DNA of 9,713 nucleotides from IMG/VR virus record IMGVR_UViG_2737471860_000011, positions 1-9,713 of that record; one strand, given 5' to 3'. Of the stretch, positions 1 through 9,713 are shown one piece after another (position 1 is the first letter of the stretch; the number at the start of each line of letters is the position of its first letter). The position numbers and the translations under genes are program-made. The notes beneath the pieces are model-generated. The model made no database searches, was not told where the DNA came from, and worked only from the letters and a program-made list of their open reading frames with translations. Origin of the DNA: a virus (lineage: Duplodnaviria > Heunggongvirae > Uroviricota > Caudoviricetes).

Positions 1-83
1 AGAAAAGTCAATGGGTTAGGTCATCGTGCAAATTTGCACTATGCCAGCCAACGCAATTTTGCGTTATCGGGAATATCAGCAAG

Positions 84-365
84 TTACCGCCGCAGTCGTT
101 CCGGCTTCTTCCACTGGTAAGTATTTTTCGCGCTCTCCCTCCGTTGTTGAGAACGGCGACGGTATGCCAGCAACTCAAGGACTCTGGTTCGTATGTTGCG
201 CATATCCACGCCGTTAAGCTCAATACCGTCACGGCGCATCACCTCAGCAACAACACGCGCGTAATTTTCGGCTGTCACGCTGTCCGGCTGTGTGGCCTGT
301 TCGTCATGCTGCTGGCTGATTCCGGTAACGCGGCGGATTAATCCCAGTAGTTCGGCTTCTGTCAT
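84..365 (-). CDS. Hypothetical protein (93 aa), function unknown
   Basis: ATG at 365-363 preceded by GGGGG Shine-Dalgarno 4 nt upstream; TAA stop at 86-84. Lies immediately outside the cosQ side of the left cos copy. No family recognised. Confidence 0.45.
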   Translation of the reverse strand: MTEAELLGLIRRVTGISQQHDEQATQPDSVTAENYARVVAEVMRRDGIELNGVDMRNIRTRVLELLAYRRRSQQRRESAKNTYQWKKPERLRR

Positions 366-397
366 TGTGCCCCCATCGCTCTGATAGTCTGGTGTCG

Positions 398-465
398 TCG
401 GGTCCTTCCTGGAATTATGGCCCGTTACGGGGCGGCGACCTCGCGGTTTTTCGCTATTTATGAGC
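398..465 (+). other. Lambda-type cos site, copy L (cosQ-like, cosN 430-441, start of cosB), plus orientation
   Basis: Contains GGGTCCTT...GTTACG followed by GGGCGGCGACCT and CGCGGTTTTTCGCTATTTATGA. This matches the phage lambda genome ends (right end ...GGTTACG, left end GGGCGGCGACCTCGCGGGTTTTCGCTATTTATGA) as recalled from memory. Confidence 0.75.
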
Positions 466-658
466 TTTTTTAGAGGGAGGTTGTTGTTTAATTGTTTGTC
501 ATATCCATTTGATAACTAAGTAAAAATAAAGAGCAATACAACAACCTGATAGTGTTTTTTTGATGCTAAAAATAAAAAAATGCTAATTGAATCAAATAGT
601 TTTAAAAAAATACGTGGTTGTTGTATTGCGTATTTGATGGCGTAACAGAAAGTGATTT

Positions 659-1099
659 TTAACTTTGCTGTTCTGTAACGACTGATTGTTCCATGCTGGC
701 ACGGCGAACGCTTACGGCATGACGCCACCCAGCCAGAAAGCCAGCCATTTTATTTCGTGCCTTGCTCACATCTTCCGGTGAATAGCCGTAAATCTGCAAA
801 CCTTCATCAAATCGATGTTCTGTTTCTTCACTGGAGTACTCGTCACGCTCAGATGAAAGCAGCCTGGCAAACATAATTTTTTCCAGCGCACTGGTTTCTA
901 CGTGATATCTGATGGCCTCAAGACGGCTTTTACCTGAAGACCAAAGCAATGTATGCCCGATGTGATAACCGCCAGACTTTCCGCGATCCGCATTAAGATA
1001 CGGCATCCCCTGTTTGGTCCATGCGCGAATAGTGGTTCTGTTAACCTTGAAATGTTCAGCTATTTCCTGCTGACTTACAAAACAAGCTTTATCAATCAT
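659..1099 (-). CDS. Terminase small subunit Nu1-like protein / candidate PICI Rpp-type packaging-redirection protein (146 aa)
   Basis: N-terminus SQQEIAEHFKVNRTTIRAWTKQGMPYL parallels lambda Nu1 KKQLADIFGASIRTIQNWQEQGMPV (winged HTH). ATG at 1099-1097 with AAGGT Shine-Dalgarno; start lies about 90 bp downstream of cosN copy R in the lambda cos-to-Nu1 arrangement. Confidence 0.8.
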   Translation of the reverse strand: MIDKACFVSQQEIAEHFKVNRTTIRAWTKQGMPYLNADRGKSGGYHIGHTLLWSSGKSRLEAIRYHVETSALEKIMFARLLSSERDEYSSEETEHRFDEGLQIYGYSPEDVSKARNKMAGFLAGWRHAVSVRRASMEQSVVTEQQS

Positions 1100-1165
1100 A
1101 ATGTTACCTTAACTGCATGGTTAAATATTAATCAAGTGGTGGTGGTGTCACCTTCACGGAAAAAC

Positions 1166-1233
1166 GTCATAAATAGCGAAAAACCGCGAGGTCGCCGCCC
1201 CGTAACGGGTCCATATGCCGGAAAGGACCCGCA
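1166..1233 (-). other. Lambda-type cos site, copy R (cosN 1189-1200 on minus strand), canonical position upstream of the Nu1-like gene
   Basis: Reverse complement reads GGGTCCTTTCCGG...CCCGTTACG, GGGCGGCGACCT, CGCGGTTTTTCGCTATTTATGA. About 90% identical to copy L in inverted orientation; cosN 12-mer identical to lambda. Confidence 0.8.
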
Positions 1234-1254
1234 AAAAAGCCGGATTTCTCCGGC
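1233..1254 (-). terminator. Rho-independent terminator ending the capsid-module transcript
   Basis: Minus strand reads GCCGGAGAAATCCGGC (6-bp stem, 4-nt loop) followed by TTTTTT. Located 7 nt after the stop of the 137-aa gene. Confidence 0.6.
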
Positions 1255-1260
1255 CTTGTC

Positions 1261-1674
1261 TCAGATGGTTTTCAGTATGCGATCAATGTCGCCGTCATCG
1301 CCCGGGTTTCTGCCATCGTATGCCATGCCAGCTGATACGGCTTGTGGGCTGTGCATGTCCATAAAGTTTTCAAAGGCTGCGGTAAGCTCTGGTGCAACCT
1401 TCTGGCGTTCCTGCTCTATGGTCATGTTCAGGATGTTTTTAGCCGTATCAACATCAATACAAGGCACGTTTGCCATTGCACGTAACAGCGGCTGATAGTC
1501 GTCAGATTCATGAAGCGACATAATCGCATCAGCGCGCGGCTTGTCCTGTTCTTCCAGTTTGTTAAGTTGATATATAGCTTCGTAGGTTGATAGACATCTG
1601 TCAGCCATTGCCCGCGCTTCAGCTTTAAATTTACTCGCCAGCGGTAGCGCCATGATACTTTCATTCGTTGCCAT
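1261..1674 (-). CDS. Hypothetical protein (137 aa) in capsid module; possible assembly or scaffold-like factor
   Basis: ATG at 1674-1672 with GGTGGA Shine-Dalgarno, 13 nt after the gpD-like stop. The track ORF 1261..1785 extends upstream across the gpD-like gene and is probably an over-extension. Acidic, helical-looking sequence; no family recognised. Confidence 0.55.
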   Translation of the reverse strand: MATNESIMALPLASKFKAEARAMADRCLSTYEAIYQLNKLEEQDKPRADAIMSLHESDDYQPLLRAMANVPCIDVDTAKNILNMTIEQERQKVAPELTAAFENFMDMHSPQAVSAGMAYDGRNPGDDGDIDRILKTI

Positions 1675-1687
1675 CGTTCCACCCTGC

Positions 1688-2023
1688 TTATCGCGCCAGC
1701 GGCTGAACAGATACACCAGAACCCGCAAAGGCGGCGCATTTTTTCGCGTCAGTGTCGGCGCTCTCAGGCCAGTTAACGGCGGCAATATTGAATATCCCCG
1801 TCTTGTAACACTGTGCTGACTTCTGCTTTGACGTGTCCACGGGGTACGAAGTCAGATAAACAGCCTTGCCAGATTCCTGACCATCCCACGGCTTAAACTC
1901 GCCATTGTCCGCCAGCATCAGCGGGGTAAATTCCTGAATAACGCCAGCATCAGCGGCAAAATGTACCAGTGTCGTGGATACCTGCTGACTGCCTGCAAAT
2001 AACTCAATGTATGGAGTGTCCAT
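1688..2023 (-). CDS. Head decoration protein, lambda gpD-like (111 aa)
   Basis: TPLMLADNGEFKPWDG and YKTGIFNIAAVNWPESADTDAKKCAAFAGSGVSV parallel lambda gpD TPLMLDTSSRKLVAWDG and [35 protein letters not shown]. ATG at 2023 with GGGGGA Shine-Dalgarno, 11 nt after capsid stop. Confidence 0.85.
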   Translation of the reverse strand: MDTPYIELFAGSQQVSTTLVHFAADAGVIQEFTPLMLADNGEFKPWDGQESGKAVYLTSYPVDTSKQKSAQCYKTGIFNIAAVNWPESADTDAKKCAAFAGSGVSVQPLAR

Positions 2024-2034
2024 AGAATCCCCCG

Positions 2035-3090
2035 TTAACCAATTTTGACGGTAACAAATTTGCGAATATCTGCCGGAACCGGCTGCGGTGCGCTGTGTGT
2101 CTGCACGTACTCAATCGCCGGATCGCCGTCCTCAATCCAGTTTTTCGGGTAGTACATGTTTTGCGTTGCGCCCGTTCTTACAGCTTCCTGATCCATAATC
2201 GCACCATAGGCCACCAGACCTTTGTTGTTGGTGTTGCCCAGGACCAGTAAATCAGGCTCAAGGAAATATTTTTCGGTGCCGTCGCTGTCAGTGTATTTGC
2301 CGGAATAGACGATAAGGGCAATATCGCCCAGATAGCCTTTAAAGCTCACCACTTCGCCCAGGTTTTTACAGGCCAGTTCTGCGGCGGATTCTGAACCACG
2401 GGAAAGATCGTACAGTTCGCGGAATTTTTTAAAGCTGCGTAACGTTCGCCATACCTCAGCGCCCATAATCATGACGTTGGCGGGGCAACCTGCTTGATCT
2501 GCGTATAGTTCGATATCATAGATTGGATCATGGGTTTCTTTGTCCTGCTCTGACCATTTACGGCCTTTGGCCTGCTCTATGATGTTTTTTTCCGGTATCT
2601 TCCAGTCGATTTCATAGCGTTCTATGCCTTCGCCCTCAATGATGTTTTTTCCGGTCGTTACCGCATTCACCGCCAGCCATTCCACGCGTGCCTTAATGGC
2701 GTTTATCTGGCGGCGCATGTTGCCAGTAATCAGGCGCATACGTCGGTAGGTAGGATCGTTAAGCTGTGCCGGATCTTCTCCAGCCATGCGCATGATGGTT
2801 TTTGTTGGATCGATTTCGTGCTTTGGCTTCATGTAGCCAGGTTTAATCGTGCTGGTTTCGTACCCTTTATCGCGCTGTACCTGGCTACCCACCATAGGCG
2901 AACAAAACGCAGACATGGTAACTTCTTCGGTATCCAGGTTATCCAGCATGATGTTTTGCGTGTTGAATGTCGCTACTTTCGGGAAAAACAGCGACGTAAA
3001 CAGTGGACTGAATTTAAATTCCGAAATATCCCCGCGATTCAGGTATCTGAAAAGCTGGTTAGTGTTAAGTGCCGTTGCTTTGCCTGTCAT
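2035..3090 (-). CDS. Major capsid protein, lambda gpE family (351 aa)
   Basis: KFSPLFTSLFFP, KPGYMKPKHEIDP, DPTYRRMRLITGNMRRQ and C-terminal YPKNWIEDGDPA match lambda gpE (KFDPLFLRLFFR, TPGYVKPKHEVNP, DPAYRRRRIIMQNMRDE, YPKNWVTTGDPA). Strong GGAGGTG Shine-Dalgarno 4 nt before ATG at 3090. Confidence 0.9.
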   Translation of the reverse strand: MTGKATALNTNQLFRYLNRGDISEFKFSPLFTSLFFPKVATFNTQNIMLDNLDTEEVTMSAFCSPMVGSQVQRDKGYETSTIKPGYMKPKHEIDPTKTIMRMAGEDPAQLNDPTYRRMRLITGNMRRQINAIKARVEWLAVNAVTTGKNIIEGEGIERYEIDWKIPEKNIIEQAKGRKWSEQDKETHDPIYDIELYADQAGCPANVMIMGAEVWRTLRSFKKFRELYDLSRGSESAAELACKNLGEVVSFKGYLGDIALIVYSGKYTDSDGTEKYFLEPDLLVLGNTNNKGLVAYGAIMDQEAVRTGATQNMYYPKNWIEDGDPAIEYVQTHSAPQPVPADIRKFVTVKIG

Positions 3091-3296
3091 TATTCACCTC
3101 CATGAGTCTGATTCATGCCCAGCGCCGCACGTAAATAGGCGCGTACCTGCCAGCCTGTTGACGGCTCAACCATCGCCAGCGGCTCAAGTCCTGCCGCAAT
3201 GCCTGCTTTTACGTTCTGCTGGTGGCGTTCCTTGAGCGCCTCCACGATGTCTGGGCTTATGTAAACTGTCACCCCGCCTTTTTTCTCTTCTGCCAT
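3090..3296 (-). CDS. Hypothetical small protein (68 aa) translationally coupled to the major capsid gene
   Basis: ATG at 3296 with AGAGGA Shine-Dalgarno about 10 nt upstream; its TAA stop overlaps the capsid ATG (TAATG). The track ORF begins at a GTG (3329) inside the promoter palindrome, which is less likely. Function unknown. Confidence 0.45.
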   Translation of the reverse strand: MAEEKKGGVTVYISPDIVEALKERHQQNVKAGIAAGLEPLAMVEPSTGWQVRAYLRAALGMNQTHGGE

Positions 3297-3324
3297 AGTC
3301 GGAAATTCCTCTTTGACGTTAAAA

Positions 3325-3380
3325 ATCACAACTGGATGTTCATCCAGTTGTGATTATAATCATGATTTCATTTTACGCAA
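3325..3380 (-). promoter_or_regulatory. Candidate sigma70 promoter of the capsid module overlapped by a 30-bp perfect palindrome operator
   Basis: Minus strand: -35 TTGCGT (3380-3375), 16-bp spacer, -10 TATAAT (3358-3353). Palindrome ATCACAACTGGATG-tt-CATCCAGTTGTGAT (3325-3354) abuts the -10 and covers the predicted start site; its core is CTG-N10-CAG. Confidence 0.5.
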
Positions 3381-3465
3381 TAATGTTTGGTTGTGTTGCA
3401 AATTGTGAAATGATTTGCGGCAACAGTAGTCACCATACTGTTAGATAAAAGCCTCATATGCAAAA

Positions 3466-3502
3466 GCCCGATAAGACCCTCTGACCTTATCGGGCTTTTT
3501 TT
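3466..3502 (+). terminator. Strong rho-independent terminator (bidirectional potential) between SSB and capsid modules
   Basis: GCCCGATAAG / CTTATCGGGC 10-bp stem with 10-nt loop followed by TTTTTTT on the plus strand; preceded by AAAA, giving a 4-U tail on the minus strand. Confidence 0.65.
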
Positions 3503-3509
3503 GGGGCAT

Positions 3510-3531
3510 AAAAAAGCCGAACTTCTCCGGC
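3510..3531 (-). terminator. Rho-independent terminator after the SSB gene
   Basis: Minus strand GCCGGAGAAGTTCGGC (imperfect stem) followed by TTTTTT. About 20 of 22 nt identical to the terminator at 1233-1254. Confidence 0.5.
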
Positions 3532-3547
3532 TTCTGTTACTCATTGC

Positions 3548-3970
3548 TTAAAACGGTATGTTATCCCCGTACGGATCATCGTTACCCGCCTGTTGTTTTG
3601 CCCTGTTCAGTGCGTCAGTAGCCTGGCCCTGTTGACCTTTTTTGCCGCCCAGTCGCGCCGTTCGCGCACTGATTACACTGTCTGCGATAACCTGCCAGCC
3701 CTGCCGCGTTTCTCCGTTCTGCCCAGTCCACTGGCTGATCTGCATGTTACCCGCCACGCTCAGGAGTTCACCCTTGCGGTGCCTTTCCAGTGCTTCGGCC
3801 TGTCTGCCAAATGCCAGGACGGATAACCACATCGTCGCCGTTCCGTCATCTGCCTGGCTGCACGGAAGGGGGACCGCCATACGCGCCAGCGTCATCGGTG
3901 TGCCCTTGCTGGTGGTCTTTAACTGCTGGTCAGCCACCAGCCGCCCGTAAGCCGCTATCTGTGCTGTCAT
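3548..3970 (-). CDS. ssb: Single-stranded DNA-binding protein (SSB) homolog (140 aa)
   Basis: OB-fold signature WLSVLAFGRQAEALERHRKGE...QWTGQNGETRQGWQV parallels E. coli SSB [21 protein letters not shown]...KWTDQSGQDRYTTEV. Gly/Gln-rich linker and C-terminal tail ending DNIPF (E. coli SSB ends DDDIPF). ATG at 3970. Confidence 0.8.
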   Translation of the reverse strand: MTAQIAAYGRLVADQQLKTTSKGTPMTLARMAVPLPCSQADDGTATMWLSVLAFGRQAEALERHRKGELLSVAGNMQISQWTGQNGETRQGWQVIADSVISARTARLGGKKGQQGQATDALNRAKQQAGNDDPYGDNIPF

Positions 3971-4033
3971 GCTGTCTGTTCTCCGGTTTTAACGTTGATA
4001 GTTACGCTTGTTTACACCCTTACGGTGAAATTC

Positions 4034-4158
4034 TGCGGGTTATAATCGCACTTTTGCGGGTTATAACTGCCATTTTGCGGGTTACGTGCGGGTTATTGAT
4101 TTCCTTTTTATTCATACAGTTAATTCACTTATACACAGGATAACCCGCATAACCCGCA
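4034..4158. repeat. Iteron array, putative replication origin
   Basis: Direct repeats of TGCGGGTTAT/C at 4034-4043, 4055-4064, 4076-4085 (21-bp phasing) and 4087-4096; AT-rich spacer 4097-4139; two inverted copies ATAACCCGCA at 4140-4149 and 4149-4158. Immediately 3' of the primase-helicase gene. Confidence 0.7.
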
Positions 4159-4181
4159 ACTTTTCACCTCACACAGGGTAG

Positions 4182-6305
4182 TTAATCTTCTGCCTCAGGC
4201 TGGAACATCATCACGTAAAAAACATGCTGCTTACCCCCAATTTTGCCGAGCGCCTTTTTCTTGTAACGGCGATCGTTACCCGCTTCCAGCATTCCGGCAG
4301 CACTCAACGCGCGGGCAAAGTGAGACGGATTAAATCCCTGTGCTATCTCACCCTCAAACACATGAGGAAACGTGTAAAAACGGAACTCATCATCTTCATT
4401 TCTGATACTCCCCTTTCTGTATCCGGCAAGGTCTTTAATCGGTAAATCACGCTCATCACTGTTTGGGTAAGGAAGGTATCGACTGAACCCGAACGACGAC
4501 AAAAACGCCTCAGCCTGTTCAACCATCTGTTTAAATTCCCTGTTACCCGTGCCGAACTCCTTCACCCAGGCATTAAAGTTATGCTGTATTGCGTCCCGGC
4601 ATTCCTGCGCGGCCCAGCCAGTTACATGACCGGAAAGCACAAGCGCAGCCTCCAGTATGGCGAAACGCTCCCCCACGCGGTGGACCTGCTCGCCGTAGCT
4701 ATCCGGTATCAGGTTGCGCCACCGTTCGCGGCATTCCCTTACCGTATCCTTTGCCTCCTGCTGGTGGTCTGCCAGCCATTTAACCCATTCACGACCCGCC
4801 GCCCCGTGATTTTCTGTCCAGGCATCTTTTAACGCGTCTGCGTGCGCCTTTCCGGTGCTGTATTCGTGAAATTGCGTGGCTTTTTCCATCGGAACGTTAA
4901 GCAGGCGGACAAGCTGCCCCGCTTTGACTTTTATCCCCTCCGTTTTGAGGAATGTCTCAACGTCCATTTCTCCGGTGCTGATTGCCACCGTGCGCCAGTG
5001 TTTTATCTCCCGGTTGCCGCCGTCCTTCGCCCCCTGTAATTTCCCGGAGCCGTTAAACAACGTATAGGCTGACGTGGACACCTCCCGCGCGTTTCCGGCC
5101 TGACCTATTTCATCCAGGGGTAACAGCCCGTCGTTGTGTGCCTCTGCCTCGTTGGCGATACCTAACGCCGTTCCGTACCAAGTAAGCCGTTGTGCGTCCG
5201 GCTCTCCCCATAAACTTGATGCGATGTTCTGCGTGGTGGTTTTCCCTGCCGATGACTGTTCGAAAAGATGTACCCCGAAGCCGTCAGCACCAACAAGGCC
5301 AATCAAAGGTGCTGCCAGTGACGTGGCAACACCCAGCATCATGGACGGATTGCCACCAGCCAGCCGCGCCACGCTGTCACGCCAGCCCTCCGCCGTACCC
5401 GCAACCGAATAGCCATTAACAGCGGCACTTTTTCCGGTAAACAGGATCGGTTTTTCAGAATCACCAATGATTGAACCGTCCGGCATGATGTACGCGCCAA
5501 AATGCCAGCCCGTTGTTGTGCTTAACTGCCATTCCTCATGGCTTCCGCTTAACTGCATCCAGTCAGCCAGGATAGCCCTGTATTTGCCGTTTGTTGTCAC
5601 ATTCAGCCCGTGATCTTTAAGCAACCGCCAGCCGTCACGGTCGCCAATGCCACCACACGGGATCGCCATTGTGATGACTTCATGGTTTGCTAATTTTTTC
5701 CAGCGCATCACGCGGTAATGCTCTTTACCGATCGTCCCCGTTCCCAGTAGTTCAAGCGGAGAACATAACCACGTCTCAGGCCGGATAATTTCGCCTGACT
5801 GCTTATCCACTTTGGGCGTTACCCAGAAAACACCATCGACGCGACTTTCAACGCGGGGCTTTAATTCATCATCCTGATAGCATGGCTCTTTTTTCTTTAC
5901 AGGCAGTTCAACTACCTTTTTCTTTTCCGCCAGCTCTCCCCGCTCACGCTCCAGATATTCGCGCCAGTTCTCCCGTTTCTGGCTGTGCATTCCTTCAGGG
6001 TAATAATCAGCATCCCTGACACCTGCCGCTGCCAGTTTCTGCCCGATGGTATTAACAAGCCCCGGACGCAATAACCCCGCCTGATAGAGACGCACGCGAT
6101 AGCGTCCGTCCGGTACGATTTGCAGGTTGTCCAGTTCGACAAGTTGTTGCTCTCCAAGCCAGACAGGTGGCACGTTATCGCCAGCCAGTCGCCCGTCCTG
6201 TTCCTGCCACTGTTTCGCATGTGCCCACGCATCACTACCCGCAAAAATGATGACTTCCGTCATTTTGTCACGCGGCTGGTGTTTTAAATTTGGCGCTTTT
6301 TTCAT
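4182..6305 (-). CDS. Replication initiator, fused primase-helicase (P4 alpha-like / DUF927-type, Pri-Rep), about 707 aa
   Basis: Large ORF with a P-loop-like motif (FEQSSAGKTT); position downstream of AlpA and directly upstream of the iteron array. Preferred start is the ATG at 6305 with GGAGAG Shine-Dalgarno, rather than the upstream GTG at 6320. ATG overlaps the stop of the preceding ORF (ATGA). Family assignment is from overall resemblance and context, not a domain search. Confidence 0.8.
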   Translation of the reverse strand: MKKAPNLKHQPRDKMTEVIIFAGSDAWAHAKQWQEQDGRLAGDNVPPVWLGEQQLVELDNLQIVPDGRYRVRLYQAGLLRPGLVNTIGQKLAAAGVRDADYYPEGMHSQKRENWREYLERERGELAEKKKVVELPVKKKEPCYQDDELKPRVESRVDGVFWVTPKVDKQSGEIIRPETWLCSPLELLGTGTIGKEHYRVMRWKKLANHEVITMAIPCGGIGDRDGWRLLKDHGLNVTTNGKYRAILADWMQLSGSHEEWQLSTTTGWHFGAYIMPDGSIIGDSEKPILFTGKSAAVNGYSVAGTAEGWRDSVARLAGGNPSMMLGVATSLAAPLIGLVGADGFGVHLFEQSSAGKTTTQNIASSLWGEPDAQRLTWYGTALGIANEAEAHNDGLLPLDEIGQAGNAREVSTSAYTLFNGSGKLQGAKDGGNREIKHWRTVAISTGEMDVETFLKTEGIKVKAGQLVRLLNVPMEKATQFHEYSTGKAHADALKDAWTENHGAAGREWVKWLADHQQEAKDTVRECRERWRNLIPDSYGEQVHRVGERFAILEAALVLSGHVTGWAAQECRDAIQHNFNAWVKEFGTGNREFKQMVEQAEAFLSSFGFSRYLPYPNSDERDLPIKDLAGYRKGSIRNEDDEFRFYTFPHVFEGEIAQGFNPSHFARALSAAGMLEAGNDRRYKKKALGKIGGKQHVFYVMMFQPEAED

Positions 6306-6601
6306 TTCTGCTCTCTCCACGCGGCAATCATGTTTTTCAGTTCCTGTAGTTTTTTATCCACATCCACACGTGACACATGGTTATTTCTGGAAGTCGGGAT
6401 TTCCCGCCGGAATCTACAAATAAAGATCTCCACGTTCAGCGAACTAAGAAATGAATAGCCATCACGGATAAAATACACACGGTCAAACATCAGTTCTTTT
6501 ACCGTTACTCTGTTACCGTTCTTATCCAGATAAATAGCGCCGGGGATAATTTTGGGGTGTGCATAACCGCTGGCAGTCAAGCCAGATAAATACGTTCTCA
6601 T
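6302..6601 (-). CDS. Hypothetical protein (99 aa), translationally coupled to primase-helicase
   Basis: ATG at 6601 with GGGGA Shine-Dalgarno; TGA stop overlaps the primase ATG. About 38% GC in a sampled 100-bp stretch, lower than the primase gene. No family recognised. Confidence 0.55.
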   Translation of the reverse strand: MRTYLSGLTASGYAHPKIIPGAIYLDKNGNRVTVKELMFDRVYFIRDGYSFLSSLNVEIFICRFRREIPTSRNNHVSRVDVDKKLQELKNMIAAWREQK

Positions 6602-6607
6602 GATTAC

Positions 6608-6928
6608 TTATCCCCGATTTGAATCAGTATTCGCTTTCTTTATGGCATTTAACGCATCTGTGGCATTTTCAATGGTGCACCGTAACGAAATATCAAACTG
6701 CCCAAGCATTGTCAGTAACAAACCGATATTCCCCATGTCAATGCGCATAGCCTTTTCGTCATATTCCTTATTTTCTGACGCATACCACATCAGGCTACCA
6801 ATTGACGCAACAGCCATTGATATATTGTCAGTAGCCGCATCCGCAGCAGAATAAACCTTTTTAGCAATATCATGCTCACAGTTAAAATGCGGATTAATCA
6901 GGTACTGGTAATTTGACATATCAGGCAT
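6608..6928 (-). CDS. Hypothetical protein (106 aa)
   Basis: ATG at 6928 with GGGGG Shine-Dalgarno; 6-nt gap to the next gene. Low-GC like its neighbour. No family recognised. Confidence 0.55.
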   Translation of the reverse strand: MPDMSNYQYLINPHFNCEHDIAKKVYSAADAATDNISMAVASIGSLMWYASENKEYDEKAMRIDMGNIGLLLTMLGQFDISLRCTIENATDALNAIKKANTDSNRG

Positions 6929-7124
6929 GGCACACCCCCTGACGAATACGGGCAGCGAATACCATCACGCAGCCAGCCGGGGATTGCTGGCGTGCTTCCT
7001 GTTCGCTGCTGGCCTCAATGGTAATCACGCGCGGTTGTGCCGTACTCAGGGCGATAAAACGCCAGATGTATTTATTCAGGTTGTGCGAGTCCAGCCCTTG
7101 CGGGTGTGTGGTATGATTTCTCAT
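6921..7124 (-). CDS. Hypothetical small protein (67 aa), first gene of the replication operon
   Basis: ATG at 7124 with GAGGT Shine-Dalgarno 5 nt upstream; 8-nt overlap with the next gene start. The track ORF 6921..7862 (313 aa) is rejected as one CDS; only the 3' 68 codons have a ribosome-binding site and sit downstream of the promoter. Confidence 0.4.
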   Translation of the reverse strand: MRNHTTHPQGLDSHNLNKYIWRFIALSTAQPRVITIEASSEQEARQQSPAGCVMVFAARIRQGVCHA

Positions 7125-7222
7125 AGCTACCTCGATACTCTTGCTATCGTTGGTGGTTAGACGCCCTGCATGTGTTGCGAGCACTGCGGGGCGTTGCTTA
7201 ATTTGAGTGACAAAACTCAAAC

Positions 7223-7302
7223 TGTGCGCACAGATTAAAATCATGTGTGCGCACATGTCAATACTTAACATCTCATTTTTTTTGCTGTATTGTGTGCGCC
7301 CA
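7223..7302. promoter_or_regulatory. Divergent promoter region with three operator palindromes (TGTGCGCACA)
   Basis: Perfect 10-bp palindrome at 7223-7232 and 7246-7255; one-mismatch copy TGTGCGCCCA at 7293-7302. Minus-strand promoter: -35 TTGACA (7261-7256), 16-bp spacer containing O2, -10 TTTAAT (7239-7234), with O1 at about +1. Plus-strand promoter: -35 TTAACA (7265-7270), 17 bp, -10 TATTGT (7288-7293), with O3 over -10/+1. Confidence 0.6.
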
Positions 7303-7329
7303 TAAAGTCCATTTAAGTGAGGTGCATCA

Positions 7330-7527
7330 ATGTCTAGCGGTAACACAAACAACAAATCAGCAAAGAAAAATATTCGATTCCCACATGAGCTTATAGATGG
7401 GATTGATGCCAGCGTTGAACAAGAAAAATTAACTAATCCTAGTGCTAATTTTTCCGCATGGGTCTTAGATGCCTGTGGACGCAAATTAAAATATGAACAG
7501 CGCCGGAAGGCCAAAGAATCAGAATAA
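7330..7527 (+). CDS. Arc/Mnt-like ribbon-helix-helix transcriptional regulator (65 aa), candidate repressor of the replication operon
   Basis: NIRFPHELIDGIDASVEQE...NFSAWVLDACGRKL parallels P22 Arc NLRWPREVLDLVRKVAEENGRSVNSEIYQRVMESF (beta-strand then two helices). GAGGTG Shine-Dalgarno 6 nt before ATG; divergent from the operon across the operator palindromes. Confidence 0.65.
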   Translation: MSSGNTNNKSAKKNIRFPHELIDGIDASVEQEKLTNPSANFSAWVLDACGRKLKYEQRRKAKESE

Positions 7528-7584
7528 TCACTATCAGCGCCGTGGTGTGAGTAACTACGGCGCATTGCTATGCAGGACAACACA

Positions 7585-7758
7585 ATGACCGATAAAGAAT
7601 TGACCAAAACATTATCACCGGCACGGAAAAGACGGCGCAGAAAGATAGAGCATGAATCAGAAAGATTCGCACCTTGTTCGTTTGCTCTTGAGAAATTCCT
7701 TAAAGAGCACAGGAAAAAGCTCTCGTTGCAAACCTTGGGACGAACCAAATCTGACTGA
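7585..7758 (+). CDS. Hypothetical small arginine-rich protein (57 aa from ATG 7585; track ORF starts at 7570)
   Basis: AGGA about 8 nt before ATG 7585; contains ARKRRRRK. Sits between the RHH gene and a plus-strand terminator. Weak support overall. Confidence 0.3.
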   Translation: MTDKELTKTLSPARKRRRRKIEHESERFAPCSFALEKFLKEHRKKLSLQTLGRTKSD

Positions 7759-7825
7759 TCACATTGCCCACCAGCCGCAAATGTGGCATTGTTGGTGATG
7801 CGTTCAAGTTTAGTGTGTATCCATT

Positions 7826-7851
7826 GGCGACCGCCCCCGGTCGCCTTTGTT
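7826..7851 (+). terminator. Rho-independent terminator of the plus-strand regulatory transcript
   Basis: GGCGACC gccccc GGTCGCC hairpin followed by TTTGTTATATAT on the plus strand; no U-tract on the minus strand. Confidence 0.6.
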
Positions 7852-7872
7852 ATATATGTCATATGCTCCCCT

Positions 7873-8082
7873 TTACGCTGCCTTACCTGAATTAATGCGA
7901 TCCCGGCTTTTAACCCATTCCATAACCTCGGACAGCAGCCAACCTACAGAACGCCCACCAAGATTACGGCGAGACGGAAAGCTCCCTTTTTTCTCCAGTT
8001 CGTAGCGTGTAGTGCGACACACTCCAGTTAACTTACGACATTCATCCTCACGGATTACGCGATCTTCATTTATTTCACGCAT
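7873..8082 (-). CDS. alpA: AlpA / P4 Vis-family transcriptional regulator (69 aa; track ORF extends to a GTG at 8169)
   Basis: ECRKLTGVCRTTRYELEKKGSFPSRRNLGGRSVGWLLSEVMEWV matches the AlpA pattern (HTH, then KxGxFP...LGGRSV.W...E...W). ATG at 8082 with AGGT Shine-Dalgarno; adjacent to and co-directional with the integrase. Confidence 0.8.
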   Translation of the reverse strand: MREINEDRVIREDECRKLTGVCRTTRYELEKKGSFPSRRNLGGRSVGWLLSEVMEWVKSRDRINSGKAA

Positions 8083-8474
8083 ACAAAAACCTACATAAAA
8101 ATTACGTATATAAACTTTTCTCTTAGCTGTAGATATATGAGATCGGATATTACTTAGATTCTTTTTCACCTCTTAAATTAAAAACACAACCATGCTAAAG
8201 GCTTTGTTCGCTAAGGTTCGTAGAAGCTCGTTAGTGTTTAAAATCGTGTCACGAGTTTTTAAGCGACGCAACAAAAAAATGTCTTCATTTTGCATGACAC
8301 TTGAATTATCTCATTAAAAACAAATAGATAAACCATCAAGTGTTGGAACAATCAAGAAACAGAGAATAAAAACCCAGAAGACGACATTCCAATTAAGATA
8401 TTTGCAGATATTTTCCGATATTCTACGATTTATTCACGGCTGTAATCTCTTAAAGAAAAAACAGCCGTAATTTG

Positions 8475-9713
8475 TCAATAATTTTGGGTGTAAATTCGCG
8501 GGGTCATAACAACGATTTTTTCATCATTGTTCTGGAGAAGCTCGAGACGGTCTACCCATAGATTAAGAGCGTCACGCTTTGCATCGAGATAACGGGAGTG
8601 GTTATAGACGCGTTGCATTCCTGGCATCTGGTGGGCAGTAAGCTGTTCGACAATATGCGGATCCACGCCTAAATCGTTCAGCATGGTTGTAAATGTGTGC
8701 CGGATGTCGTGCAACGACCAGGGGGCTTGATTAATGCGTCTGTGTGCCGTTCTTCCGTACTCTGCTACGGATGATTGCCCTTTCAGTTCTCCAAGCAATA
8801 AGCCCGTGTGCCTGTTCTGCTCCACCAGCTTCATGACGAACGGCAAGATCGCTTCCGGTATTGGCCTGAATATTGCTACCTTCGTTTTGCTGTGTTCTTT
8901 CGGCACAGTCCAGAGCATTTCTTTAAAATCCCATTCCCGAACCTCGGAGCGTCTTAGCTCAGTGGTACGGCATCCGAAGACAATCAGAAGGCGAATTAAA
9001 GCGCTGTAGTACGGCGGGAAAATTTTTTCATCCAGTGCGCGGAGTAGCTCGCCAAGCTCCTTGTTTGTTAGCACTCGCTCGCTTATTTCTGCTTTTTTTC
9101 CCACATCACCTACGACCATATCATCAAGAACGTTACTGACGGCGTAGCGACGTTTACGGCAGTACTTAAGCGCCTGTTTGCATACCTGCAACAAAAAGCC
9201 GGCTGATACCGGATTACGCTTAGCAAGCTGGTCAAAACAGGCCAGCCAGTGGCGTAGCTCGCATTTATCCAGCGGCATAGCACCAATCTGGCTGATTATG
9301 TGCTTATTGATACGGCTTTTCAGTGATTCGTGGTCAGTGCGCTTTTCCTTCGCATACGACTCAAGCCAGTAAGTGAGCGCGTCCTTAACCGTCACGGGGG
9401 CTAACGCTTCCTGCACTGTGTGATTAAGCTCATGGCGTGGATTTTTCCCCTCCGCCAGCCAGGCGCGACACTGTGCCGCTTTTTCCCTGGCTGCTTTCAG
9501 GCTCAGATCGGGATAGTTGCCCAGTCTCAGGCGTTCCGGTGATACCTGCCTGCCAGTTCCGGCCCTGTAAGTGAAATACCAGGTTAACAGGCCGCTAGTG
9601 GAATGTCTTACGCTAAGATTGCCACCGTCATTAAAAAAGGCGTTTTTTGTGGTTGGTGATCCGCTTAATTTTCGTAAAAGAGTGTCGCTAAGTCTATGAA
9701 TTGCGCTGCTCAT
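8475..9713 (-). CDS. int: Site-specific tyrosine recombinase, P4-type integrase (412 aa; start codon is the last 3 nt of the window, possibly 5'-incomplete)
   Basis: N-terminal LSDT...DGGNLSV...YFTYR...LGNYPDLSLKAAR parallels the CP4-57 IntA N-domain. C-terminal catalytic signature HDIRHTF (H-x-x-R) and VYNHSRY (tyrosine nucleophile). Confidence 0.9.
   Translation of the reverse strand: MSSAIHRLSDTLLRKLSGSPTTKNAFFNDGGNLSVRHSTSGLLTWYFTYRAGTGRQVSPERLRLGNYPDLSLKAAREKAAQCRAWLAEGKNPRHELNHTVQEALAPVTVKDALTYWLESYAKEKRTDHESLKSRINKHIISQIGAMPLDKCELRHWLACFDQLAKRNPVSAGFLLQVCKQALKYCRKRRYAVSNVLDDMVVGDVGKKAEISERVLTNKELGELLRALDEKIFPPYYSALIRLLIVFGCRTTELRRSEVREWDFKEMLWTVPKEHSKTKVAIFRPIPEAILPFVMKLVEQNRHTGLLLGELKGQSSVAEYGRTAHRRINQAPWSLHDIRHTFTTMLNDLGVDPHIVEQLTAHQMPGMQRVYNHSRYLDAKRDALNLWVDRLELLQNNDEKIVVMTPRIYTQNY

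Follow-up and report, generated by a model that had tools for sequence, protein, structure and literature searches.

Why does a mobile island carry two lambda-type cos sites that face each other across one small gene? The question is raised by a 9,713-nt stretch of viral DNA (Caudoviricetes; IMG/VR record IMGVR_UViG_2737471860_000011, positions 1 to 9,713), here called the window, in which an earlier note made from the letters alone had described two inverted copies of a cos region, copy L at lower and copy R at higher coordinates, on either side of a gene for a 146-aa protein. The core of the observation is already known, as the pair of cos sites that flank rppA in the island EcCICFT073 has been published under the names cos1 and cos2 (PMC6092414, 2018; PMC6739421, 2019); copy R is cos1 and copy L is cos2. 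Judged from sequence, cos2 is a complete lambdoid cos site (cosQ-cosN-I2-R3-R2-R1), homologous to phage cosB and ending where a phage terS would start. This phage-type nature of cos2, its modularity and the existence of inversion isomers are additions beyond the accessible literature.

Two facing cos sites

The following features of the cos region were located in the window:

400..409, + strand: cosQ-like element of copy L (cos2), GGGTCCTTCC, from the sequence and the lambda alignment
430..441, + strand: cosN of copy L (cos2), exact GGGCGGCGACCT, from a motif search
442..463, + strand: cosN-proximal I2-like block CGCGGTTTTTCGCTATTTATGA, the same in both copies and 1 base off lambda
464..640, + strand: phage-type cosB of cos2 (the former "AT-rich spacer"), 83% (132/159) identical to the TUM2330 prophage cosB
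479-487, + strand: R3-like element GGTTGTTGT of cos2 cosB
538-546, inverted: R2-like element ACAACAACC of cos2 cosB
near 591: ATCAAAT block in cos2 cosB, IHF-like with one mismatch, invariant
616-624, + strand: R1-like element GGTTGTTGT of cos2 cosB
659..1099, - strand: rppA (redirecting phage packaging protein A, 146 aa)
1100..1166, - strand: island-type cosB of cos1, 165/165 to CFT073 cos1
1136-1152, - strand: single R3-PICI element GGTGACACCACCACCAC in cos1 cosB, bp 49-65 counted from cosN
1167..1188, - strand: cosN-proximal conserved block of copy R (cos1)
1189..1200, - strand: cosN of copy R (cos1), exact GGGCGGCGACCT
1220..1230, - strand: cosQ of copy R (cos1), GGGTCCTTTCC, identical to lambda
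442..1188: inter-cosN cassette cosB2 - rppA - cosB1, 747 bp, a unit found as inversion isomers in other strains

A repeat search of the window revealed inverted arms at 399-470 and 1160-1231, which are 72 nt each, 88% complementary and separated by 689 nt. The two facing copies, previously put at about 65 bp and about 90% identity, are thus real. The exact lambda cosN occurs once on each strand against a chance expectation of 0.02 matches, and two matches were reached in none of 200 shuffles of the window. The longest run identical between the copies, which includes cosN, is 43 nt (421-463), slightly longer than the core of about 39 nt described before. Aligned with lambda cos (NC_001416), both copies were 79-84% identical across cosQ-cosN-I2, and the cosN match to lambda, on whose failure the earlier note had been prepared to give up the idea, was exact in both. 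Each copy has the 12-nt cosN, cosQ about 20 nt upstream of it and the I2 block downstream, as in a lambda-type cos. The cosB sides of both copies point inward, toward the 146-aa open reading frame (ORF), and the distance from cosN of copy R to the ATG of this ORF is 89 nt, a phage-like position given earlier as about 90 bp. The GC content is 27% in the 193 bp from copy L to the stop codon of the ORF (466-658), compared with 49% for the window. Terminator-like calls at 428-443 and 1187-1202 were rejected, as they represent merely the partial dyad symmetry of cosN.

The idea that the inverted repeat arose by chance or through misassembly has practically no probability and may be considered refuted already, since the shuffles failed to give two cosN sites and the pair recurs not only in complete genomes but also in dozens of independent contigs.

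A phage-type cosB in cos2

The earlier note had ended copy L at position 465 and regarded the DNA between it and the gene as an AT-rich spacer of 190 bp. A sensitive BLAST of positions 366-700 against 5,426 complete E. coli genomes gave a different result. Loci in TUM2330 and EC21Z-078 matched the window well beyond cosN. Both lie inside lambdoid prophages, where the matching stretch is located between lysis or accessory genes and a Phage_Nu1 terS and ends just before the terS start codon. Positions 466-629 are collinear with the prophage cosB immediately ahead of terS (TUM2330, EC21Z), with 132 of 159 positions identical (83%). A shuffle control of this identity was uninformative because free end gaps favour short spurious alignments, and the homology is based on the BLAST E-value (H33, 4e-44) and the full-length collinearity. 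As homology to phage cos regions continues to about 629-640, the supposed spacer belongs to copy L, and the end at 465 was placed wrongly.

The motifs GGTTGTTGT and ACAACAACC were found at the three R positions listed above and nowhere else in the window. In copy L only, their order and orientation fit the R3-I1-R2-R1 rule of lambda-like phages, in which R2 is inverted, and R3 lies at bp 50-58 from cosN compared with 53-59 in lambda. A comparison of 15 distinct cosB copies of this type showed the three R elements and the ATCAAAT block to be invariant and the spacers between them to vary. What had been taken for a spacer is therefore a full phage-type cosB with an R3/R2/R1-like triad.

Both copies resemble lambda in cosQ, the exact cosN and the I2-like block, and copy L also in its three-R architecture, orientation pattern and R3 spacing. 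Unlike lambda, neither copy has the R sequence CGTTTCC. Neither cosB side could be aligned collinearly to lambda, so that the specificities of cos2 and cos1 would differ from that of lambda. Copy R has a single R3-like element, an arrangement likened to phage N15 by Murialdo and Feiss (PMC9026076). Unlike in lambdoid phages, copy L is not followed by terS, and two convergent cos sites about 750 bp apart are not a phage arrangement.

Different phage cosB types were found in the cos2 position of other islands. The cosB of CFT073 cos2, with CCGGACAT repeats, was 97% identical over 135 nt to phage PhiR12_1, in which the sequence lies between Rz and Nu1. The second cos of the Nissle 1917 island was 75% identical to the cosB of a CFT073 prophage, which encodes a TerS-21 type terminase (PMC9026076), and the islands of O157:H7 and DEC9B have at the cos2 position a cosB of lambda architecture with CAGATCC repeats, 73% identical to lambda. 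A BLAST of the phage collection with the window cosB and with the TUM2330 cosB gave no match, and this counterpart was seen only as prophages in E. coli genomes. Prophage cosB-terS junctions of the window's type (G type) were present in 245 of the 5426 genomes and those of the CFT073 type (C type) in 1156. The TerS proteins of TUM2330 and PhiR12_1 are both Phage_Nu1 members; their C-terminal parts are nearly identical while the N-terminal DNA-binding regions differ, as would be expected if the TerS N-terminus and cosB set the specificity.

The enclosed gene and the island

The gene between the two sites had been described as Nu1-like. This holds for the N-terminus, which resembles TerS: the match to the TerS family phrog_57 is confined to residues 7-47, the N-terminal helix-turn-helix (HTH). 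The gene itself is rppA and not a small terminase gene; Rpp proteins are winged-HTH mimics of TerS that also have dimerisation helices. The first 50 aa of its product are identical to RppA in the supplement of Fillol-Salom et al. 2019, the protein matches the RppC crystal structures 6HLK/6HN7 (E=5.7e-31), and it is 97-100% identical to RppA of islands in IMG/VR and about 99% identical to CFT073 RppA. No Pfam match to Phage_Nu1 (PF07471) was obtained for it, only sub-threshold generic HTH matches; PF07471 does match the true TerS proteins of loci L003, L005 and L035.

Pfam matches in the window include Phage_integrase, Phage_AlpA, DUF927 primase and SSB. The backbone of a phage-inducible chromosomal island (PICI), consisting of integrase, AlpA and a primase or replication module in about 10-15 kb, is present, and the gene order was compared at the packaging end. 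Together with the capsid-like and decoration-like genes described below, this is the arrangement known from PICIs of Gram-negative bacteria. By sequence the window belongs among the RppA-type PICIs of the EcCICFT073 family.

In EcCICFT073 the cosN copies are located at 2559 (+) and 3298 (-) of locus L002, around rppA, in the same convergent geometry, and the genes for the capsid-like protein, the decoration-like protein and the 137-aa ORF, cos1, rppA, cos2 and the 93-aa ORF follow one another in the same order. The cos1 arms are 96% identical and the cos1 cosB sides, with the start of rppA, identical in 165 of 165 positions, and copy R also agrees with the sequences printed in the literature; the cosQ-cosN arm of copy L agrees with that of CFT073 cos2 in 76 of 79 positions (96%). 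The inter-cosN distance is 747 bp in the window versus 727 bp in CFT073, and RppA has 146 aa versus 144 aa, with different last residues. Unlike the prototype, the window has a cos2 cosB of the GGTTGTTGT type, similar to the TUM2330 prophage, whereas that of CFT073 is of the CCGGACAT type, similar to PhiR12_1. The 66% identity between the two, with 40 gap positions, is taken as no real homology.

Helper-induced excision, replication, RppA-dependent transfer and helper interference have been shown for EcCICFT073 alone. Its cos1 and cos2 each permit plasmid transfer by lambda and phi80; without cos1 the island is transferred less, without cos2 its transfer by lambda increases, and transfer is lost completely only when both sites are deleted (PMC6092414). 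As the architecture is the same, these data support the earlier suggestion that packaging may begin at either site. Terminase cleavage into 12-nt cohesive ends is presumed from the same transfer assays with plasmids and island on the CFT073 sites. In the prototype RppA heterodimerises with the helper TerS, and recognition of the cos1 cosB by this complex delivers TerL to cosN; the stimulation by RppA bound to helper TerS is confined to cos1 and acts via the cos1 cosB (PMC6739421). A single R3-like element was placed at bp 48-65 of cos1 by Murialdo and Feiss 2022 (PMC9026076), and in the 2019 paper both island cosB sequences are said to be "completely divergent" from those of lambda and phi80. 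How the sites are oriented to each other, inversion and a phage counterpart of the cos2 cosB are subjects missing from the main texts of PMC6092414, PMC6739421 and PMC9026076. Treatment of cos2, its orientation or inversion was found nowhere in the later literature, in which Murialdo and Feiss 2022 covers cos1 only.

Next to the CFT073 island lies a prophage, phage 4, which is 21-type (PMC9026076). The island cos1 and the phage 4 cos (L002 2559 and 39745) point the same way at a distance of 37.2 kb, with phoPQ, purB and icd between them. The lower packaging size limit of lambda heads is about 38 kb, and with a length close to this limit, cos-to-cos packaging of the phoPQ-purB-icd segment is a possibility.

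Distribution of the cos pair

A scan of species-representative genomes with RppA peptide patterns gave no relative, and relatives were taken from IMG/VR contigs and complete E. coli genomes. Among the 25 IMG/VR loci found with RppA, all 19 lambda-cosN loci that extend far enough contained the convergent pair. The cos1 cosB was constant in these loci, and the cos2 cosB was of either the G or the C type. In three further, more diverged RppA loci both arms had another cosN core; the architecture was unchanged and cos2 was of the G type. One RppA locus carried the same single-base cosN variant in both arms. In L025-L027 (about 3870-3930 and 4600-4680), L095, L096, L098 and L100, cosQ and the TATTTATGA block are kept and a variable core replaces the lambda cosN in both arms. 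The cos1 arms of L001, L005, L010, L011, L013, L018, L022 and L117 contain the cosQ-cosN spacer typical of cos2, CTTCCTGGAATTATGGCCCG, instead of CTTTCCGGCATATGGACCCG, which suggests gene conversion between the arms or earlier inversions.

A census independent of rpp, anchored on the 93-aa ORF adjoining cos2, comprised 79 loci:

35 loci (of 61 cos-bearing): cos1 and an intact convergent cos2
9 loci: cos1 and what is left of cos2, namely cosQ plus half of cosN joined to the terS stop
17 loci: cos1, no cos2
18 loci: a different island class, no lambda-type cos

The truncated or cos2-less loci inspected (L038, L047 and L079) were TerS-type islands. The pair is thus ancestral and widespread, kept in every RppA island sampled and dispensable in TerS-type relatives. 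As to the comparison of one versus two copies proposed in the earlier note, all RppA islands sampled have the pair, but of the 61 related loci 9 have only a truncated cos2 and 17 lack it.

The TerS-type sister islands (E. coli Nissle 1917, O157:H7 and DEC9B) have the same flanking genes, with the 93-aa ORF adjoining the second cos, and a subset of these islands has the convergent pair. Unlike the window, they carry a full-length 180-aa Phage_Nu1 TerS homologue in the rpp slot, and the cosB of their cos1 contains a separate R triad, GGTGGTGGT / ACACCAACC / GGTTGGTGT; in such islands cos2 is often truncated or missing. A requirement of cos2 for expression of the 93-aa ORF was considered and rejected, as single-cos islands have this ORF 15 nt after the terS stop. 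In L038 (2530-2600) and also in L039, L041-L043, L048, L084, L086 and L090, cos2 is cut down to cosQ plus the initial 8-9 nt of cosN, joined directly to the terS stop, and the end point of the deletion therefore lies inside cosN. Homologues of the 93-aa ORF were also seen directly downstream of an apparent large-terminase gene in L056, L068, L072, L093, L103 and L114 (2300-2610), where a lambda-type cos is lacking; this island class may be the capsid-forming PICI type. A third cos in L119-L121, about 4.2 kb upstream, was dismissed as a one-mismatch cosN-like match in coding sequence with no cosQ or I2 flanks.

Islands without rppA and inversion isomers

Seven islands without rppA have two phage-type cos sites that face each other across 512-613 bp, with only a fragment of the rppA 3' end left between them. 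The paired sites differ in specificity, one being of the CCGGACAT and the other of the GGTTGTTGT type. With no rppA and two phage-type sites, these islands would rely on helper-type cos alone. Islands listed as lacking rpp were L033 (E. coli SCU-172, 1490-2170), L030, L046, L053, L055, L064, L076 and L118-L121.

The earlier note had offered an invertible packaging cassette as one of its options, and natural isomers support it. The segment between the cosN sites in L046 is identical in 510 of 512 positions to the reverse complement of that in L064, and the flanks are collinear (299/300 and 282/300). Polymorphisms on the cosQ side stay with the flanks and those after cosN travel with cosB, and the crossover is therefore confined to the 25-bp identical stretch CCCGTTACG-cosN-CGCG. 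The flipped form of a full cassette was sought with a chimeric query. In E. coli WP4-S17-ESBL-08 the RppA accession of CFT073 is annotated on the opposite strand with the same neighbours, next to phoQ; the 727-bp inter-cosN segment is identical in 727 of 727 positions to the CFT073 reverse complement, and the right flank is collinear (400/400). At the left junction, 64 complete genomes had the normal and 15 the flipped arrangement. The flipped genomes share identical match statistics and similar chromosomal positions and may be one clone. With two cassette types involved, there were at least two independent inversion events.

A flipped form of the window's own combination of RppA with a G-type cos2 was found neither in complete E. 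coli genomes nor in IMG/VR, where the matches represented the rpp-less isomer. No invertase gene is present in or beside the cassette, the sole recombinase being the island integrase about 7 kb away. The arrangement is thus unlike the Hin, Gin, Cin and Fim switches: it has no dedicated recombinase at the repeats, and the arms are cos sites.

Neighbouring features

Two ORFs flank the cos region:

84..365, - strand: conserved 93-aa ORF, phrog_1561, downstream neighbour of cos2 and anchor of the census
1261..1674, - strand: conserved 137-aa ORF, phrog_1999, upstream of cos1

Genes for a gpE-like major capsid protein (PF03864, E=2.7e-52) and a gpD-like decoration protein (PF02924) lie within 1261-3090 (-). 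The corresponding capsid- and decoration-like genes of CFT073, c1499 and c1500, were deleted to probe a role in interference, and EcCICFT073 is packaged in full-size capsids (PMC6092414). Residues 44-119 of the 137-aa ORF match the C-terminal end of a head-maturation-protease PHROG, and its product could be a Nu3-like scaffold. A GC hairpin followed by a T-run was seen by eye in the sequence at about 1233-1260, after the 137-aa ORF. Ahead of rppA, two pairs of sigma-70-like hexamers (3 consensus matches versus 1.7 expected) are located at 1095-1151 (-), inside the cos1 cosB. The putative rppA promoter, if real, would overlap the binding region of the Rpp-TerS complex and move with the inverting cassette.

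Proposed role of cos2

We consider it probable (about 0.6) that cos2 is a second, Rpp-independent packaging site for another family of helpers and that inversion arises as a side effect of the cos arms. Three elements of this reading are what we infer from the comparisons above: the use of cos2 by specific helpers, why it is oriented as it is, and how inversion comes about. The hybrid complex of RppA and helper TerS would bring the helper TerL to cos1, whereas cos2 would be recognised directly, without RppA, by an unmodified terminase whose TerS matches its R triad. Packaging in lambda runs from cosN toward cosB. Packaging from copy R would accordingly proceed toward lower window coordinates, through rppA and around the concatemer, and packaging from copy L toward higher coordinates. 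Termination requires cosQ upstream of cosN relative to the translocating terminase, and for this reason neither site should terminate packaging begun at the other. The opposite orientation would hide each site as a terminator from the terminase of the other, which may explain why an inverted site is tolerated. With non-matching helpers such as lambda and phi80, cos2 would be dispensable and slightly costly, which fits its loss in many relatives. Occasional cutting at cos2 with such helpers would damage concatemers, and this would explain the published gain in transfer upon deletion of cos2.

Inversion would most likely result incidentally from recombination in or close to cosN. If both cosN sites were cut, the cassette would be freed with two identical cohesive ends, which could re-anneal in either orientation, and this would explain a crossover in the 25-bp interval that holds cosN. 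Homologous recombination between the 72-bp arms is an alternative route, and the sequence data do not separate the two. A fuller form of this proposal, in which cos2 is a swappable adaptor, the convergent sites serve as crossover points and double cosN cutting is followed by re-annealing either way, is advanced only tentatively. As an adaptor, cos2 would add to the private, Rpp-dependent cos1 a complete phage cosB of different specificity, through which a second family of lambdoid helpers could package the island without Rpp.

By description, P4, the cos-type Staphylococcus aureus pathogenicity islands (cos SaPIs; SaPIbov5) and SaPIbov4, with two putative cos sites, are similar in that a copy of the helper packaging site recruits the helper terminase. 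This role of the helper-type cos in P4 and the cos SaPIs is the one we propose for cos2, and islands without rpp, such as L030, L033, L046 and L064, would have no other way to be packaged. Unlike P4 and the cos SaPIs, the window island joins a helper-type site with a redirecting protein and a private site, in inverted orientation.

Several points weigh against this reading. The published helpers (lambda, phi80 and CFT073 phage 4) do not match the CFT073 cos2 cosB, and cos2 is mildly harmful with lambda (PMC6092414). Of the 61 related loci, 9 have it in truncated form only and 17 have no cos2 at all, and it is thus not required for the family. The conservation of the R elements could be inherited from phage donors and not maintained in the islands, and the 15 flipped genomes, as mentioned, may be a single clone.

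A somewhat doubtful but still conceivable explanation is that cos2 is a non-adaptive relic, formed when identical cohesive ends and recombinogenic cut cos sites let islands and lambdoid phages swap DNA at cosN and leave behind cosB debris, which is then tolerated or gradually lost. The junction right at cosN agrees with this, as the cosQ side is island-specific and the polymorphisms after cosN follow the phage cosB type. So do the dispensability of cos2, the deletion of which increases transfer (PMC6092414), the 9 loci that retain only cosQ and half of cosN, and the 17 that have nothing. However, all RppA islands sampled keep cos2 with the full R triad, most with an exact cosN, both arms change the cosN type together in L024-L027, and at the cos2 position complete phage cosB of at least four types are found, all in one orientation. 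In addition, rpp-less islands have only such sites for packaging. A further suggestion of the earlier note was a decoy that titrates the helper terminase; on a replicating multicopy island cos2 might also provoke abortive cuts, and either effect would add to helper interference. The authentic phage cosB in cos2 and the replication of the prototype island on induction (PMC6092414) would suit a decoy, but deletion of rppA alone brings lambda plating back almost to the island-free level (PMC6739421), and a plasmid with cos2 was productively transduced and not merely bound. We consider the titration option unsupported and a decoy very improbable.

Inversion could also be programmed, the cassette acting as a phase-variation switch whose frequent flipping changes which cosB adjoins which arm of the island, or the expression of rppA. 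Perfect isomers in two different cassette types, the flipped form in 15 of 79 RppA-island genomes and the crossover within the 25-bp interval holding cosN are in line with a switch of this kind. It is nevertheless unlikely, as no invertase lies in or next to the cassette, the uniform statistics and positions of the flipped genomes suggest clonal inheritance, and the window's own combination was not found flipped. The promoter-like hexamers, moreover, are inside the cassette, so that flipping need not alter rppA expression.

Significance

The basic finding leaves the field unchanged, as the arrangement of two cos sites with rppA between them dates from papers of 2018-2019 and the window is a close relative of the island in which it was found. 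It is a further member of the RppA-island family, with a cos2 cosB module unlike that of the prototype. The function of cos2 was left unexplained in the literature, where the site was assayed only with helpers of non-matching cosB. Islands of this kind carry virulence and accessory genes. If it is true that cos2 is phage-type, varies in specificity and matches abundant prophages, the helper range of these islands may depend on two independent recognition systems. The inversion isomers show that cos sites can serve as recombination substrates that rearrange packaging modules, which bears on the shuffling of packaging specificities among phages and satellites.

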